A stretch of 64,000 nucleotides of DNA from Candidatus Gastranaerophilales bacterium. GTDB lineage: Bacteria > Cyanobacteriota > Vampirovibrionia > Gastranaerophilales > Gastranaerophilaceae. Below are positions 9,501-58,483 of this stretch, piece by piece (the first letter of the stretch is position 1; every line of letters begins with the position of its first letter). The stretch lies in the NCBI GenBank assembly GCA_944326485.1, contig CALVED010000006.1, positions 18,944 through 82,943 on the forward strand, in the 5' to 3' direction. A program made the position numbers and the translations under genes. The notes under the pieces were generated by a model. It did no database searches. It had not been told where the DNA came from and saw only the letters and a program-made list of their open reading frames with translations.

Positions 9501-9554
9501 GATTATAGTAAGAAAATATTTATAGAAAAAATTCACGATAAGCTAAAAGTGTGA
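6507..9554 (+). CDS. cheA: hybrid CheA-type histidine kinase (Hpt, long N/K-rich linker, HATPase, CheW domain, C-terminal receiver-like domain)
   Basis: Hpt motif HSLKGASRMLGF. N box HILRNAVSHGIE. G boxes DDGYGIN and GRGIGLD. CheW-like segment FIILVNDQKYAIPVN. The C-terminal ~120 aa are receiver-like. The last codons and the stop lie inside repeat module A. Confidence 0.9.
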   Translation: MQYNPEELDEILNIYKAESEEIIQELNDGFLELEKNPENKEPLKKLFQLVHSLKGASRMLGFNSVQDISHKLEDILSYWKKEGTIIEKNSFQVIYEVCDLINELIIKSVQQKSDYIDNNVMVFLNKLDNFILSEKPIDNSEKIVKKENYLVEKSKDIDAIILELIFILGKNNEKDNIDEILSVIVDNINLLYEIFNKTEYDNVKNHIKEILNEINNNNDKENAILKFKEQIKSLKDEIYIIFKDLNINLSSAKLRKKEETKVEKEEKQRCNEDIEKKFDLLLKNLPKIKYEKNYINKVNEELKSLIVLSNNKQTEIIISKTLNILKLFQDKDILIDNECYMVILQSIYLAKRMSLNEKEENLNNLNFLIQRLNVVEDMFKITNLRKQKTNNDELKIQPQSKSSIIDIDTIKNNINSFELQEIKTLRVDTSKLDNLISQTGELLVNGIKTREHLFELSNINMKLIQWNSASKKIINYLKYLEKKGFFNTEFDDSAFVFYKKAQNFFWNNADMITDIQKDFNRLYNIISEDDNKLHQTAMEIETIAKGIRVLPLATIFHSFPRMIRDIAIENKKKVDFIVSGSDTTVDKKLIEEIKMPLIHILRNAVSHGIEVPEERIKNGKKDIGIVKLSAKQAENNVIITIEDDGYGINLEKVKKTAISKGILTEEEIENITNEQLMKLLFLPGFSTEDSVNEISGRGIGLDIVKTKINNLNGDIYIDSILNKGCRVTIKLPVSMSTIKTFIILVNDQKYAIPVNAIKYVKRINKNDIFDKNGQNYIIYDEHSIPIYSLSEVLGEKSETILQEKQLTVIIIENQERQAAFVIDKLLGDQEVFHKKLELPIIKIKNISGFTTLSTGEICLIVNPYELIRNTILTNYLSSFDIKQIGKDNEVNLYEKRLVIYGDNSFEFIKKDIEEEYKNVITFNNIYSVHDYIQKNEIDIFICKFNNEEKDKELIKLIKYIKNDENLSKIKIVIFSDLTIIEILNVLEGIKPDLYIKINDYSKKIFIEKIHDKLKV

Positions 9555-9704
9555 GTGAATTTTTTCTACAAAACGAACAAAACTTTGTCTTTGAGTGTGC
9601 TTGTATCCTTAGTGAAACGAAGGTGAGGAGCGTTTTCAAAAGGTAAATACTTTGTTCGCTAGGATGCCGATGTAACAATGTTTTTGATACTATATTTGTT
9701 AAAT
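9521..9704 (+). repeat. family-1 modular intergenic repeat, full A-B-C copy (copy 1)
   Basis: AAAAAATTCACGATAAGCTAAAAGTGTGAGTGAATTTTTT..ACAAAACGAAC..GTGAAACGAAGGTGAG..TACTTTGTT..TGTAAC. The 5' end lies inside the cheA 3' end. The degenerate 3' end overlaps the stop of the minus-strand acyltransferase. Confidence 0.85.
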
Positions 9705-10412
9705 TGAATTATTATGAGCTAATTCTGTATTTTCTTGTTTTTCATCATCTAAACCGGTTTTCGTGTATGAATAATCAATTAGTTGAGATATTTGTTGTCC
9801 CCACTCATCAATAATAACGTCAATATCTTGATTATAAGAAATAGGTTTTCCGATAGATACTTTTAATTTACCTTTGAAAGGAATCCAATTATATTGTTCG
9901 CAGCCTGTTATACCAATAGGAAGGATATCTGTTTTCATTTGTTTAGCAATAACAGCAAAACCCTTATTAATTTTTTCAATTTTTTTATTTCTTCTTATGC
10001 CACCTTGAGGAAATATACCAAGCATCCATTTTTTAGTTTTAAAAACATTTATAGCAGTCTTAATAGTAGAAACTTCAAGTTTTTCTCTATTTACTGCAAA
10101 GCAAGCAAGATTATCCAAAAGGAATGCTAATATTTTATTAGTGAATAATTCTTTTTTGCCCATAAAAGCAATTGGTTTTTTTACTGCTTCTCCAGCAATA
10201 AATGGGTCAAAGTATGAAATATGATTAGGAGCAACAATAAAACTTCTATCAGTAGGAATATTTTCTGTTCCAATAAGTTCAACGTGATAGAAAAAAGGAA
10301 TTATAGTTCTAGCAACAAGCCATCTTCCAAATAGTTGGAATTGAAATTTTCCTTCTGTAAAATCAGATACTTCTCTTTTTGTATAATTCGATTTCTTTTT
10401 TTTCATTAACAT
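9699..10412 (-). CDS. plsC: 1-acyl-sn-glycerol-3-phosphate acyltransferase family protein
   Basis: 237-aa ORF. Acyltransferase motif I APNHISYFDP, plus FPQGG (motif III region). Confidence 0.8.
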   Translation of the reverse strand: MLMKKKKSNYTKREVSDFTEGKFQFQLFGRWLVARTIIPFFYHVELIGTENIPTDRSFIVAPNHISYFDPFIAGEAVKKPIAFMGKKELFTNKILAFLLDNLACFAVNREKLEVSTIKTAINVFKTKKWMLGIFPQGGIRRNKKIEKINKGFAVIAKQMKTDILPIGITGCEQYNWIPFKGKLKVSIGKPISYNQDIDVIIDEWGQQISQLIDYSYTKTGLDDEKQENTELAHNNSI

Positions 10413-10427
10413 TAATCTTTCTGTCTG

Positions 10428-11063
10428 TTAGTTATGAACGTATTCTAGTCCTGATAAATTGCTTACCGCTTCTGCCCAATTTTTAACCATTTCATCAACA
10501 TTATTGTCAAAAGAAATAGATTTTCCAATTTTAATAATAAAATCTTGTTTTTTAGAGTTTGGATTATCTTTAACAATTATTGCAACTGGTAAAACATCTG
10601 CTTTAATTTTTTTAGAAATAGAGGCAAAACCTTTAGTTATATTTTCTATTTTTCCGTTGTTGCATCTTGTTCCTTGTGGGAAAAGGCCTAAATGCCAATT
10701 AGTATTTTGTATAGATAAAGCTGTTTTAATTGTGGATACATCAACTTTGTCCCTATCAACAGCAAAAGCACCACACCAATCCATTAAAACCATTGACCAA
10801 AAAGTTTCAAAAAGTTGTTTTTTTGCCATATATGAAATGGTTAGATTTAATTGTGCTGCGACAATAAATGGATCATATCCTGTAACATGATTACTTGCTA
10901 CAATATATTTCTTTTTTTTATCTATATTTTCTTTTCCTTCTACCTTTAGGTTGTATTTGAATCTTAAGAAGGTTTTAATAACAATATTGCAAGTAATATA
11001 TTGGAAAATTTTTCTCCATATATTAAAACTTTTGGCTGTTTTTGTTGAGAATTTGGTTGTCAT
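10428..11063 (-). CDS. second PlsC-like acyltransferase paralog (tandem)
   Basis: 211-aa ORF. Motifs ASNHVTGYDP and FPQGTR. Lies 15 nt downstream of the first paralog on the same strand. Confidence 0.75.
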   Translation of the reverse strand: MTTKFSTKTAKSFNIWRKIFQYITCNIVIKTFLRFKYNLKVEGKENIDKKKKYIVASNHVTGYDPFIVAAQLNLTISYMAKKQLFETFWSMVLMDWCGAFAVDRDKVDVSTIKTALSIQNTNWHLGLFPQGTRCNNGKIENITKGFASISKKIKADVLPVAIIVKDNPNSKKQDFIIKIGKSISFDNNVDEMVKNWAEAVSNLSGLEYVHN

Positions 11064-11214
11064 AAATGCCTTTTAATACTTTAATCTATAAATTATTATA
11101 ACAAAAATAAAAAATATTATAATTTATTATTTTACTTGATTAAACTTTATGTTTAATTTATAACTAACACATAGACAATAAATCATGGTAGGTAAAAGAA
11201 GGAGTTCAAAAACT

Positions 11215-12219
11215 ATGGTAAATGTTGCAATTAACGGATTCGGAAGAATCGGTAGAAACACTTTAAGAGCAGCTATCAGAGAAGGTATCTTTGATAAAAT
11301 TAATTATGTTGCTATAAACGACCCAGGTTTAACACCGGCAAATGCTGCACATGTATTTAAACATGATTCAGTTATGGGTAAATTTGACGGTACAGTAGAA
11401 GTTGCTGAAGATGGTTTAGTAATCAACGGCAAAAAAATTAAATTCTATGCTGAAAAAGATCCTGCAAATCTTCCTTGGAAAGAATTAAATGTAGATGTAG
11501 TAGTTGAATCAACCGGATTCTACACAGATGCAACAAAAGCTCATGCTCATATTGATGCTGGTGCTAAGAAAGTTATTATTTCTGCTCCTGCAAAAAATGA
11601 AGATATAACAATTGTTTTAGGCGTAAATGATAAAGAATACGATACAACAAAACATCATGTAATCTCAATGGCATCTTGTACAACAAACTGCTTAGCTCCT
11701 GTAGCTAAAGTTTTAGATGAAGAATTTGGAATTGTTAAAGGTTTAATGACAACAGTTCACTCATATACAGGTGACCAAAGAATCTTAGATGCTGGACATA
11801 AAGATCCACGTCGTGCAAGAGCTGGTGCTTTAAATATTGTTCCTACAACAACAGGTGCTGCAAAAGCTGTTGCTTTAGTATTACCTCAATTAAAAGGTAA
11901 ATTAAACGGTTTCGCTATGAGAGTTCCTACTCCAGATGTTTCAGTAGTTGATGTTGTTGTTGAAACACAAAAACCTGTAACAGTTGAAGCTGTTAACGCA
12001 GCATTAAAGAAAGCTGCTGATGGCCATGTTTTATGCTACAGTGAAGAACCACTAGTATCTTCTGATTATATTGGTACTTCTCAATCTTCAACAGTAGATG
12101 CAGCATTAACAATGACAATGGGCGACAATATGGTTAAAGTTGTTTCTTGGTATGATAACGAAATGGGTTATTCTACAAGATTAGCTGAAACTACTTTAAT
12201 GGTTGCTTCTAAACTATAA
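11215..12219 (+). CDS. gap: glyceraldehyde-3-phosphate dehydrogenase
   Basis: [12 protein letters not shown]-binding motif and active site [10 protein letters not shown] chose the ATG at 11215, preceded by GAAGGAG, over the upstream ATG at 11185. Confidence 0.95.
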
Positions 12220-57770: not shown

Positions 57771-57805
57771 TTTTAAAGTTTTAAATAATATAAATTAAAA
57801 TATAT

Positions 57806-57840
57806 AGAGGCGAGAATAAAAAGATTACCGCCTCTATTAT
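57806..57840. terminator. hairpin terminator downstream of the NifX-like gene
   Basis: Stem ATAGAGGCG / CGCCTCTAT with a 16-nt loop and A/T-rich flanks. Confidence 0.55.
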
Positions 57841-57858
57841 TAAATTGTTTTATTGTAA

Positions 57859-58254
57859 TTAATGACAATGACCGCAAGAGTGTCCATTGTGATTATGATC
57901 TTCTCCATGATGTTCGTGATGATCACAATTTGCTTCACTCATTTGTATAAGATTTCCTTTTAGATAATTTTCAACAGCTTTATCCGCATCTCCTTTTATT
58001 CCTGCATATAATTCTATTCCATAATCTTTTAATGCACCGATAGCACATCCGCCTATACCGCCACATATCAATACATTTATTTTATTTTCTTCAAGAAGGT
58101 ATGCTAGGGCGCTATGTCCTAATTCATTTGATGAAACAATTTGTGTATTTATAATTTTATTATTTTCAACATCGTATACTTTGAATTCTTCTGTATGTCC
58201 AAAATGTTGAAATACTTGACCATTTTCATAAGTAACTGCAATTTTCATAATCAA
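57859..58254 (-). CDS. NifB/NifX-family (dinitrogenase FeMo-cofactor-binding-like) domain protein with a His-rich C-terminal tail
   Basis: MKIAVTYENGQVFQHFGHTEEFKVYDV is typical of this family. C-terminal CDHHEHHGEDHNHNGHSCGHCH. Confidence 0.7.
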   Translation of the reverse strand: MIMKIAVTYENGQVFQHFGHTEEFKVYDVENNKIINTQIVSSNELGHSALAYLLEENKINVLICGGIGGCAIGALKDYGIELYAGIKGDADKAVENYLKGNLIQMSEANCDHHEHHGEDHNHNGHSCGHCH

Positions 58255-58304
58255 TTCTCCTTTACTTTAATCATATCAAAAATTAAATTTAGTTCAATTA
58301 ATAT

Positions 58305-58483
58305 ATCCGAGAAAAAACTCACGACAAGCTAAGTGTGAGTGAATTTTTTTTACAAAACGAACCAAAAACTTTGTTTTTGAGTGAGCTTGTATCCATAGTG
58401 AAACGAAGGTGAGCAGAATTTTCAAAAGTGAGTACTTTGTTACCGAGAATGATTCGCTAACAAAGTGCGATACTGGATTAAAT
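58305..58483 (+). repeat. family-1 repeat, full copy with variant module-C hairpin (copy 18)
   Basis: ATCCGAGAAAAAACTCACGACAAGCTAAGTGTGAGTGAATTTTTTTTACAAAACGAACC..GTGAAACGAAGGTGAGCAG..AGTGAGTACTTTGTTACCGAGAATGATTCGCTAACAAAGTGCGATACTGGATTAAAT. Confidence 0.92.

Follow-up and report, generated by a model that had tools for sequence, protein, structure and literature searches.

A short intergenic sequence recurs throughout a genomic stretch of Candidatus Gastranaerophilales (Melainabacteria), an uncultured gut relative of the cyanobacteria, and this raises the question of whether the repeat serves its host as a structured element or is itself mobile DNA. In the 64-kb stretch analyzed here (the window), a preliminary description had listed about 20 copies of a repeat with three modules (A-B-C). 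All 20 were present: an HMM built from the eight full copies recovered them with nhmmer (E-values of the full copies, 1e-43 to 1e-57), except for two items that nhmmer missed and that were verified by eye (the 3' stub 47241-47266 and the minimal copy 15138-15166). A separate repeat detection on the window also recovered repeat families. The window contains eight full A-B-C copies (~182 nt), four short A-C copies (~122 nt), two minimal copies, three 5' stubs, two 3' stubs and one degenerate fragment, a density as high as previously claimed (~1 copy per 3.5 kb). This set of repeats cannot be a product of chance. The copies are as follows.

9521..9704, plus strand: full A-B-C copy with diverged 5' terminus (TAGAAAAAATTCAC...), found by nhmmer at 9523-9697; the stop codon of upstream ORF 6507-9554 lies within module A and that of convergent ORF 9699-10412 within the element's last bases
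12289..12377, plus strand: short copy, internally deleted, with module A and the 3' half of module C
15138..15166, plus strand: minimal copy in which the 5' end directly joins the 3' end (GTCCGAAAAAACTCAAAGTAAGATTAAAG), found by eye; directly after a native terminator, with the next copy directly behind
15168..15352, plus strand: full copy (15168-15349 by nhmmer), A loop and C loop both inverted, 3' tail degenerate
16804..16985, plus strand: full copy, starting 3 nt past the TAG stop of ORF 15515-16801
20388..20510, plus strand: short A-C copy, C loop inverted, between glnA and tRNA-His
27153..27201, plus strand: 3' stub with C hairpin and 3' tail
28555..28736, plus strand: full copy, used as reference (nhmmer and folds)
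36493..36530, plus strand: diverged 5' stub, also in MAG locus L018
37743..37790, plus strand: minimal copy, internal deletion between two AAAGTG microhomologies
39378..39403, plus strand: 5' stub ending in GATAAGCT, the middle of the A loop; also in L018
42339..42365, plus strand: 5' stub ending in GATAAGCT, polymorphic
43061..43124, plus strand: degenerate module-C fragment
43768..43951, plus strand: full copy just 5' of the rplL bidirectional terminator
45237..45429, plus strand: full copy in the divergent region between L10 leader/rplJ and infC
46975..47158, minus strand: full copy between the terminators of convergent rplT and ORF 47269-47535
47241..47266, plus strand: 3' stub (AAAGTGTAATACTGGGTTAAAT), found by eye
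54170..54294, minus strand: short A-C copy of diverged sequence (54177-54293 by nhmmer), lying between divergent genes
57649..57770, plus strand: short A-C copy, starting 3 nt past the TAA stop of ORF 56510-57646
58304..58484, plus strand: full copy in a divergent intergenic region

The consensus and its three hairpins proved to be as originally described. The termini are sharp and fixed (5'-(T)GTCCGAG...GATACTAGATTAAAT-3'), with column identity of ~0.9 within the element and down to 0.50-0.58 in the flanks. On the left, module A (28555-28602 in the reference copy) forms a subterminal hairpin (arms 28563-28573 and 28592-28602) laid out as A-run, stem and T-run, like the bidirectional terminators of the host. 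Module B (28603-28662) is an optional internal segment of 60 bp that is cleanly there or missing; its copy number is 0 or 1, and no copy shows tandem iteration. On the right, module C (28663-28736) folds into a subterminal hairpin of very high stability (arms 28687-28700 and 28706-28719), after which come 17 nt of tail that close with TTAAAT. Neither the two ends nor hairpins A and C resemble one another in sequence, and the termini of A and C are not complementary. As had been noted, terminal inverted repeats are absent, and the inverted repeats that we found are internal only.

A scan of a related genome, proposed earlier as a check, showed that the same family fills a MAG, in which 34 fetched loci add 22 full and ~21 short copies. 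Window and MAG loci together hold 30 distinct full copies and 23 short ones with both modules paired on one strand, and complete copies form two discrete size classes (121-123 nt, n = 22; 177-182 nt, n = 22). Every copy is intergenic or overlaps only the last codons of flanking ORFs, and the insertion sites lie between housekeeping genes. The repeats are non-coding, in agreement with the preliminary description. Outside these genomes, no match was found in Rfam (E up to 10), plasmids, phages, viral contigs or JGI metagenomes, and no family described in the literature corresponds to the repeat. It is a lineage-specific, previously undescribed family, though of a familiar kind of bacterial repeat.

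Does the repeat then serve the host as a BOX/REP/ERIC-type structured repeat, selected as an RNA terminator, 3'-end stabilizer or processing site? The whole element folds strongly as DNA (z -5.4), and hairpin C reaches -22.6 kcal/mol as RNA. Module A has not only the layout but also the stability of a native terminator (-12 vs -9.5 to -15.9). The plus-strand RNA, which reads towards the 3' flank, folds better than the minus-strand RNA (-52 vs -32 kcal/mol), hairpin arms are more conserved than loops (97% in the C arms, 72% in the C loop), and 13 of 60 5' ends lie 2-5 nt past the stop codon of a co-oriented ORF. However, the suggested search for covariation in the stems yielded none (pairing of 89.7% vs 89.4% in shuffles; alifold covariation term of +0.52) despite ~20% divergence between paralogous copies, and a conserved structured RNA is therefore unsupported. 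In addition, either orientation of the A and C hairpin loops can be found within otherwise co-linear copies (e.g., 15168 and 20389), one whole subfamily has a broken inner C stem, and a scan for the terminator consensus did not call the elements terminators. Orientation relative to neighboring genes is nearly random ((+,+) 16, (-,-) 11, (+,-) 17, (-,+) 12), and both the rapid turnover of copies and the evolution of an orthologous copy, presented below, also speak against such selection. We consider this function unlikely.

Related genomes differ in where the element is found. Copies 9521, 43768 and 45237 of the window are missing at the orthologous sites of MAG E40__bin194 (locus L015 for the first, L023 for the other two), and conversely the MAG copies L015 562-684 and 7359-7481 are missing from the window. 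The empty site of copy 43768 in L023 is clean, with GGAGTA directly followed by TAAAAAAAGG; the filled site reads GGAGTA, then the element from TGTCCGAG to GATCAAAT, then TAAAAAAG. Stub 42339 is polymorphic: the window and strains L051 and L052 have it, and strain L053 and MAG locus L023 lack it. Since orthologous sites are occupied in one related genome and empty in another, the elements represent inserted mobile DNA, hairpin-ended and parasitic. These insertion polymorphisms, along with the sharp ends, the lack of target duplication, the TTAAAT-like target and the strand bias, point to a mobile element rather than to the purely structural repeat favored earlier. After insertion, copies decay neutrally by point mutation, by microhomology deletion (generating stubs and minimal copies) and by flipping of hairpin loops. 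Copy 46975..47158(-) and its ortholog L023 1417-1599 share 88.6% identity, and the copy evolves like its own flanks. The orthologous site of the minimal copy 37743..37790 (L018 2451-2571) keeps an intact short copy.

Insertion is into AT-rich intergenic DNA, with a TTAAAT-like motif immediately on the 5' side of the element, and often right after a stop codon or beside a terminator. Among 60 left flanks, 58 have T at position -1, 51 have A at -5 and 40 have T at -7; 16 of them are within one mismatch of TTAAATT (background, 1.0%). The motif, which is already there in empty sites, resembles the element's own 3' end; it is degenerate rather than a strict tetra- or pentanucleotide. Newer copies adjoin older minimal copies at the 3' end of the latter (15138 then 15168 in the window; L007). 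Exact and Hamming tests on 45 copies revealed no target-site duplication (TSD), and the clean empty site of copy 43768 (one site) has none, although both of its junctions are ambiguous by 1 nt (T); a perfect direct repeat of 9 bp (TTTAATAAT) lies on either side of one copy, L024 345-526. These observations bear on whether the repeat is a classical MITE, i.e., a cut-and-paste element derived by deletion from an IS with a DDE transposase. Its small size, AT-richness, intergenic position, multiple copies and extensive base pairing would suit a MITE, as would the long and short forms, which recall Correia elements, but the absence of terminal inverted repeats (TIRs) and of target duplication contradicts two defining features of MITEs, no related IS was found in the window or MAG loci and the ends are unrelated in sequence. 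Such an origin is highly improbable.

The orientation of the elements is strand-biased, yet this bias is confounded with regional gene orientation. The plus strand carries 16/18 window copies, and the seven items at 36.4-44 kb, within the minus-strand gene block, are all plus. Across 61 copies, the orientation of 45 agrees with a positive local GC skew.

Neither the 64-kb window nor ~270 kb of MAG loci yielded a transposase of any kind, whether by Pfam search of the window ORFs, by PHROG scan of 242 ORFs or by tblastn with IS608/IS200 TnpA queries (approximate sequences); the same DNA holds no multicopy sequence >260 bp. The preliminary description had likewise seen no transposase. The enzyme step is one that we infer because no such gene was found. 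IS200/IS605 elements have subterminal hairpins, insertion always places their left end on the 3' side of a specific tetra- or pentanucleotide, and their orientation follows the lagging-strand template (PMC5027513). Protein-less derivatives, the palindrome-associated transposable elements (PATEs), are known and often come with omega-RNAs (PMC10055086). We see about an even chance that the repeat is a small, non-coding, non-autonomous element moved in trans, probably by a single-strand transposase of the HUH/IS200-IS605 type, which would make it PATE-like, or by a related rolling-circle enzyme. The same short motif appears to precede both cleavage points (left junction and right end); combined with the strand bias and the subterminal hairpins, this best fits one-strand HUH excision and integration. 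Besides the missing transposase, points against it are the unlike hairpins A and C, the degenerate target motif, the confounded strand bias, the 9-bp direct repeat at L024 345-526 and, on reading, the lack of any obvious guide-to-cleavage-site pairing. An HUH-type transposase acting in trans would excise and integrate a single DNA strand (the IS200/IS605 'peel-and-paste'); a related rolling-circle enzyme might act in its place. Likely side effects for the host would be added terminator-like or 3'-end-protecting hairpins and remodeled gene 3' ends.

Absent TIRs and TSDs and a target resembling the 3' end also fit movement by a site-specific recombinase (IS110/IS1111-type DEDD, IS607-type serine or Xer-like tyrosine). 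Such recombinases involve no inverted termini, little or no duplication, and a short core common to element junction and target, with which the T ambiguity at both junctions would agree. By eye, the element's last 11 nt (CTAGATTAAAT) match 8/11 positions of the E. coli dif XerD arm (TTATGTTAAAT), and the MAG has a XerD-like gene (L020 6071-6934). This gene is, however, single, ordinary and without flanking elements, the likeness of an AT-rich sequence to dif may be chance, and Xer-exploiting elements use the single chromosomal dif site, not hundreds of sites. No IS110- or IS607-like gene was seen in the window or MAG loci, and we find this mechanism rather improbable.

A PATE might also encode a guide-RNA scaffold, with omega-RNA-like modules B-C reading out of the 3' end into the flank for a TnpB or IscB nuclease encoded elsewhere. 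Besides the frequent presence of omega-RNAs in PATEs, the strand running towards the 3' flank has the strongest RNA fold, a TAM-like motif occurs at the left flank, and the order of hairpin, 17 nt and element end approximates the geometry of IS605 right ends. Against this, no TnpB or IscB was seen, no conserved promoter was found, the elements lack an Rfam match and covariation, and module B, missing from half of the copies, is unstructured on its own (z -0.1). This variant is very unlikely.

Among known systems, the likeness to BOX repeats suggested by the preliminary description holds for modularity and the dispensable middle; membership of BOX, REP or ERIC does not hold. BOX elements of Streptococcus pneumoniae (boxA-boxB(n)-boxC) share with the repeat three modules, an intergenic and AT-rich nature, a strong predicted fold and many copies per genome. 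They belong to another lineage without sequence similarity, and we rejected BOX membership as the repeat's B is never tandem and its A/C termini are neither complementary nor TIRs. REP/BIME/REPIN sequences, mobilized by RAYT (TnpA-REP), are likewise hairpin-based and intergenic, and an HUH enzyme with one gene per genome probably acts on them as single-stranded DNA. REPs, however, are GC-rich palindromes of 20-40 nt with a conserved 5' tetranucleotide and REPINs are symmetric inverted pairs, whereas the repeat is 122 or 182 nt long, asymmetric and AT-rich; with no short GC-rich palindrome, REP and ERIC membership was rejected. Correia elements (NEMIS, Neisseria) and other true MITEs also have long and short forms differing by an internal segment and a dense intergenic spread, often beside terminators and promoters, but the repeat lacks the 26-bp inverted termini and TA target duplication of Correia elements. 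Rolling-circle elements of the IS91/ISCR/Helitron type resemble it in several ways: they lack TIRs and TSDs, a hairpin lies a few bases short of the 3' end, one short motif marks both the 3' terminus and the target beside the 5' end, and truncated copies are one-ended and 5'-anchored. Their target motif differs, no Y2 HUH gene was seen in the window or MAG loci and, to our knowledge, non-autonomous bacterial derivatives of this type are not established. As for PATEs, neither TnpA nor TnpB was found for the repeat, whose sequence resembles no known IS end; its end hairpins are unrelated, unlike those of IS608 and ISDra2, its target motif is degenerate and mimics its own 3' end, and it has an optional internal module. 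Both, however, are non-coding, ~100-200 bp long and free of TIRs and TSDs, with a subterminal hairpin at each end, a short left-flank motif as insertion target, a strand-biased orientation and mobilization in trans, presumed for the repeat. Insertion polymorphism, sharp ends, lack of TSD, a TTAAAT-like target and strand bias thus mark the repeat as a TIR-less, TSD-less mobile element that is closest to the IS200/IS605-derived PATEs.

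The eight full copies of the element align over ~185 columns with a mean column identity of 79%, and an HMM built from them recovered all eight in the window (nhmmer, E-values of 1e-43 to 1e-57). The same HMM also retrieved short copies, a minimal copy, stubs and a degenerate fragment where the preliminary description had placed them. The 3' stub 47241-47266 and the minimal copy 15138-15166 were missed by nhmmer and were confirmed by direct reading of the sequence, such that every item of the original copy list was recovered. The census amounts to 20 items in 64 kb (eight full, four short and two minimal copies, three 5' stubs, two 3' stubs and one degenerate fragment), all 20 of them intergenic. 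Independent repeat detection on the window also grouped the copies of the element.

Complete copies are of two sharply separated lengths, 121-123 nt for A-C and 177-182 nt for A-B-C, with module B found zero or one time per copy. The ends are sharply defined (column identity of ~0.88-0.98 within the element and 0.50-0.58 immediately outside) and the consensus reads 5'-(T)GTCCGAG...GATACTAGATTAAAT-3'. Module A, the left hairpin, consists of AAAAAATTCAC, an 18-nt loop and GTGAATTTTTT (RNA fold of -12 kcal/mol). The hairpin begins 8-9 nt from the 5' end and shares both its strength and its layout of A-run, stem and U-run with the native bidirectional terminators of the window (-9.5 to -15.9 kcal/mol). 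Module C forms a stronger hairpin of 9+4 bp (-22.6 kcal/mol, z = -7), which a 17-nt tail separates from the 3' end; the arms of this hairpin (ACTTTGTTA/TAACAAAGT) are unlike those of module A. The structure of module B alone is not significant (z = -0.1). As had been noticed from the sequence, there are no terminal inverted repeats: only internal hairpins are present and the 5' terminus is unrelated to the 3' terminus.

The window has a G+C content of ~28% and its proteins have exact matches in human-gut metagenome assemblies. We searched a 26-nt pattern of the 3' end against one genome per GTDB species and found matches in only two metagenome-assembled genomes (MAGs), both Candidatus Gastranaerophilales.

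Loci matching the 3'-end pattern in each MAG
E40__bin194: 33 loci
BRZ_SL__bin62: 1 locus

The window is distinct from E40__bin194, orthologous stretches being 85-97% identical. Across the window and 34 MAG loci, nhmmer identified 30 distinct full copies, along with 23 short copies in which both modules could be paired on the same strand; further copies are present beyond the window in loci of related MAGs. The consensus had not been recognized as a described element in the preliminary description, and database searches agree with this. At gathering thresholds, Rfam returned only two tRNAs and an L10 leader in the window, leaving the copies unmatched, and the best match of one copy at E ≤ 10 was ctRNA_pT181 (28.5 bits, with 56 required). 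No match to the consensus was found by blastn among 72,556 PLSDB plasmids and 50,697 INPHARED phages, and the 3'-end pattern had 0 matches in IMG/VR viral contigs. Ten JGI metagenome matches to the 19-nt 5' end were attributed to chance (GC of 42-66%, no nhmmer signal). In the literature, we found no paper connecting Melainabacteria or Gastranaerophilales with such repeats. This element family is previously undescribed and belongs to an uncultured lineage.

The element is non-coding and non-autonomous, and it has inserted recently and repeatedly. Copies 43768-43950, 45237-45428 and 9521-9704 are present in the window and absent at the orthologous MAG sites, and two copies of the MAG locus L015 (562-684 and 7359-7481) are absent from the window. 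The 5' stub 42339-42365 is polymorphic even between strains. Copy 46976-47158 is common to both genomes with 88.6% identity, which is no better than the conservation of its flanks. At the cleanest site, the empty allele reads GGAGTA directly followed by TAAAAAAAGG, and the filled allele reads GGAGTA, the element (TGTCCGAG...GATCAAAT) and TAAAAAAG; this comparison indicates no duplication, or one ambiguous T at most. Exact and Hamming tests on 45 complete copies did not reveal flanking direct repeats above the level of permuted flanks. The sole complete copy with a perfect 9-bp direct repeat (TTTAATAAT), at 345-526 of the MAG locus L024, is an unexplained outlier. Minimal copy 37743 corresponds to an intact short copy deleted between two AAAGTG microhomologies. 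Two further comparisons were set aside: L033 and L009, which share an unusual C-loop variant, were rejected as an orthologous short/full pair because their flanks differ on both sides, and L015 was too diverged from window sites 4 and 5 to yield clean junctions. At copy 9521-9704, ORFs 6507-9554 (+) and 9699-10412 (-) both terminate within the element, and their last codons differ from those of the L015 orthologues; the insertion has thus rewritten two protein C-termini.

The left flanks of the elements (n = 60) present a degenerate TTAAAT(T)-like motif (T-W-A-R-W-W-T), with T at position -1 in 58 flanks (97%), A or G at -4, A at -5 in 51 (85%) and T at -7 in 40; the right flank is uninformative. 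Sixteen of the 60 left flanks differ by at most one mismatch from TTAAATT, compared with 1.0% of all the 7-mers that this DNA contains, an enrichment of more than 10-fold. The TTAAAT-like motif is already there in empty sites and resembles the element's own 3' terminus, a likeness that fits new copies abutting the 3' ends of older minimal copies. As a consequence of the TAA or TAG within the motif, 13/60 elements begin 2-5 nt past the true stop codon of a co-oriented ORF. At the other end, 17/61 finish within ~18 nt of the stop codon of a convergent ORF.

In the window, 16 of the 18 copies lie on the G-rich + strand, a bias that is confounded with gene orientation. All seven items at 36.4-44 kb, within a minus-strand gene block, are also on the + strand. 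Over all loci, local GC skew is positive in the orientation of 45/61 copies, and the orientation of the element relative to directly adjacent genes is near random. Several copies neighbor RNA genes or leaders.

RNA features near copies in the window
44978-45171, - strand: L10 leader (Rfam RF00557, 44.1 bits), upstream of rplJ-rplL
45237-45428: full copy ~65 nt upstream of the L10 leader, in the divergent promoter region with infC-rpmI-rplT; absent from the related MAG
20604-20679: tRNA-His, preceded at 93 nt by a short copy
28148-28234: tRNA-Ser(CGA), followed after 320 nt by a full copy

The predicted RNA fold of the element is -52 kcal/mol on the + strand and -32 kcal/mol on the - strand. 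The stem covariation expected of a structured repeat, as the preliminary description had viewed the family, did not appear: 89.7% of the cells of the three named hairpins are paired relative to 89.4% in shuffles, 143 of the 500 shuffles reach the observed value, and the covariation term of RNAalifold is +0.52. This holds although paralogues differ by ~20% on average. Selection on structure is not detectable, and the hairpins are thus properties of the master sequence and not of selection acting in place. Terminator, 3'-stabilizer or guide-RNA roles may exist as side effects. For comparison, the bidirectional terminator of rplL presents a compensated change between the window (43951-43984, GAGAAGC/GCTTCTC) and the MAG locus L023 (~4470-4505, GGAAGC/GCTTCC). 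Native terminators thus show compensatory evolution, whereas the repeat hairpins do not.

The hairpins are also the sites of rearrangements. The loops of A and C are exactly reverse-complemented in a minority of copies, each independently (by eye, ~10% for A and ~14% for C). Rare variants palindromized around a hairpin were found in two MAG loci (L025 3645-3711 and L026 3093-3145), which suggests template switching at extruded hairpins. In this pair, one variant is the C hairpin with the 3' tail on both sides and the other is the A hairpin with GTCCGAG on both sides. The independent stubs 39378-39403 and 42339-42365 share one end point, GATAAGCT, where the A loop has its apex. The octamer is similar to GATTAAAT, the 3' terminus of the element, and may be a pseudo-termination or hairpin-cleavage site.

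No transposase had been seen in the window, and this absence extends to the ~350 kb formed by the window and the MAG loci, where we did not find a Y1 HUH TnpA on an IS with the element's ends. No IS elements were found in the sequence examined, and its repeats longer than 260 bp, which could represent an autonomous parent, consisted only of orthology and a gene array at 33-35 kb. This array (33218-35073, -) contains five tandem paralogous small ORFs of 108-126 aa, hydrophobic and with a period of ~391 bp. Immediately upstream of the array is ORF 35084-36442 (-; 452 aa, N-terminal half highly charged, no Pfam domain), and the layout is reminiscent of a toxin gene with an array of immunity genes behind it. 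In the related MAG, the portion of locus L018 that was fetched (5229-5923), which stops at the contig end, contains only two array units. tblastn with IS608 and IS200 TnpA queries gave no match, and an HUH-motif regular expression retrieved only PGI and a HIT protein. Among the matches listed in a PHROG scan of 242 MAG ORFs (the best 25 families per run, a cut below which weak single matches may lie), the only recombinase was a XerD-like integrase. Pfam assigned only housekeeping genes among 38 of the window's ORFs; most of the ~20 others are located at 85-9554 and 22004-25915. ORF 15515-16801 (+; 428 aa, Asp/Glu/Ser-rich) was rejected as a transposase since its product is acidic, of low complexity and without a Pfam domain. 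It is bracketed by direct full copies (15168 and 16804), and the ORF with both copies is conserved in several gut metagenome assemblies.

Elements of the IS200/IS605 group possess subterminal hairpins, insert with their left end always 3' of a specific tetra- or pentanucleotide and are oriented following the lagging-strand template (PMC5027513); derivatives without protein, known as PATEs, have been described (PMC10055086). The subterminal hairpins of our element match these published rules, its left-flank motif and strand bias may do so as well, and its features fit mobilization by an HUH single-strand transposase. One enzyme would cut a single strand behind the same motif at each of three places, namely the left junction, the right end and the target, and this strand-specific cutter would be the HUH transposase. 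Under peel-and-paste, the expected circle junction would join ...GATTAAAT directly to GTCCGAGAAAAAATTCAC.... That an IS110-, IS607- or Xer-type recombinase moves the element instead is a live alternative. Sequence resemblances had prompted readings as a group II intron, an integron attC site or a dif/IMEX element, which were dropped as no defining feature of these was present. We consider it unlikely that the mechanism is new for small bacterial repeats and/or that B-C is a guide-RNA scaffold (omega-RNA-like). A new mechanism would involve a single-copy domesticated HUH or other strand-specific nuclease recognizing two different hairpins and cutting after the TTAAAT-like motif in the target as well as at the 3' end of the element; the loop flips and palindromized variants would then record hairpin extrusion in vivo. 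A guide-RNA scaffold, if true, would mean that a reduced gut bacterium carries hundreds of omega-RNA-like loci.

Gastranaerophilales, gut bacteria related to cyanobacteria, have small genomes, are uncultured and are known from metagenomes only. The element occurs once per 3.5 kb and occupies ~3.5% of the window, a density that probably explains in part why Gastranaerophilales assemblies are fragmented; many contigs with these genes are shorter than 10 kb. The fast gain and loss of copies offers strain-level markers, and insertions that adjoin stop codons, terminators, tRNA genes and the leader of a ribosomal-protein operon may change the expression of core genes. The family also constitutes a clean natural data set for transposition without terminal inverted repeats or target-site duplications, and for hairpin-driven rearrangements such as loop inversion, palindromization and deletions ending at a loop apex. 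What stands out in it is the density, the flipped loops, the stubs that end at a loop apex and the match of the target motif to the element's own 3' end.

The likeness to BOX or REP repeats put forward in the preliminary description does not amount to membership. BOX elements comprise boxA and boxC with a variable tandem number of boxB between them (PMC3049150), whereas module B is single or missing here, giving sizes of ~122 and ~182 nt, and there is no likeness to the terminal inverted repeats of an IS such as ISSpn2. REP/BIME sequences are GC-rich imperfect palindromes of 20-40 nt, often alternating; in contrast, our element is 122 or 182 nt long, AT-rich and asymmetric, without alternating pairs. 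Classical MITEs present terminal inverted repeats and target-site duplications (PMC3049150), and the element has neither. Like PATEs, it lacks both (with the one outlier in L024) and carries a subterminal hairpin at both ends. Unlike PATEs, whose left and right hairpins are alike and recognized by one TnpA, its A and C arms differ. The target of IS200/IS605 is specific, and the left-flank motif of the element is clear yet degenerate. The element is a candidate PATE, and its closest functional counterpart is a PATE or, more broadly, an HUH-mobilized element.
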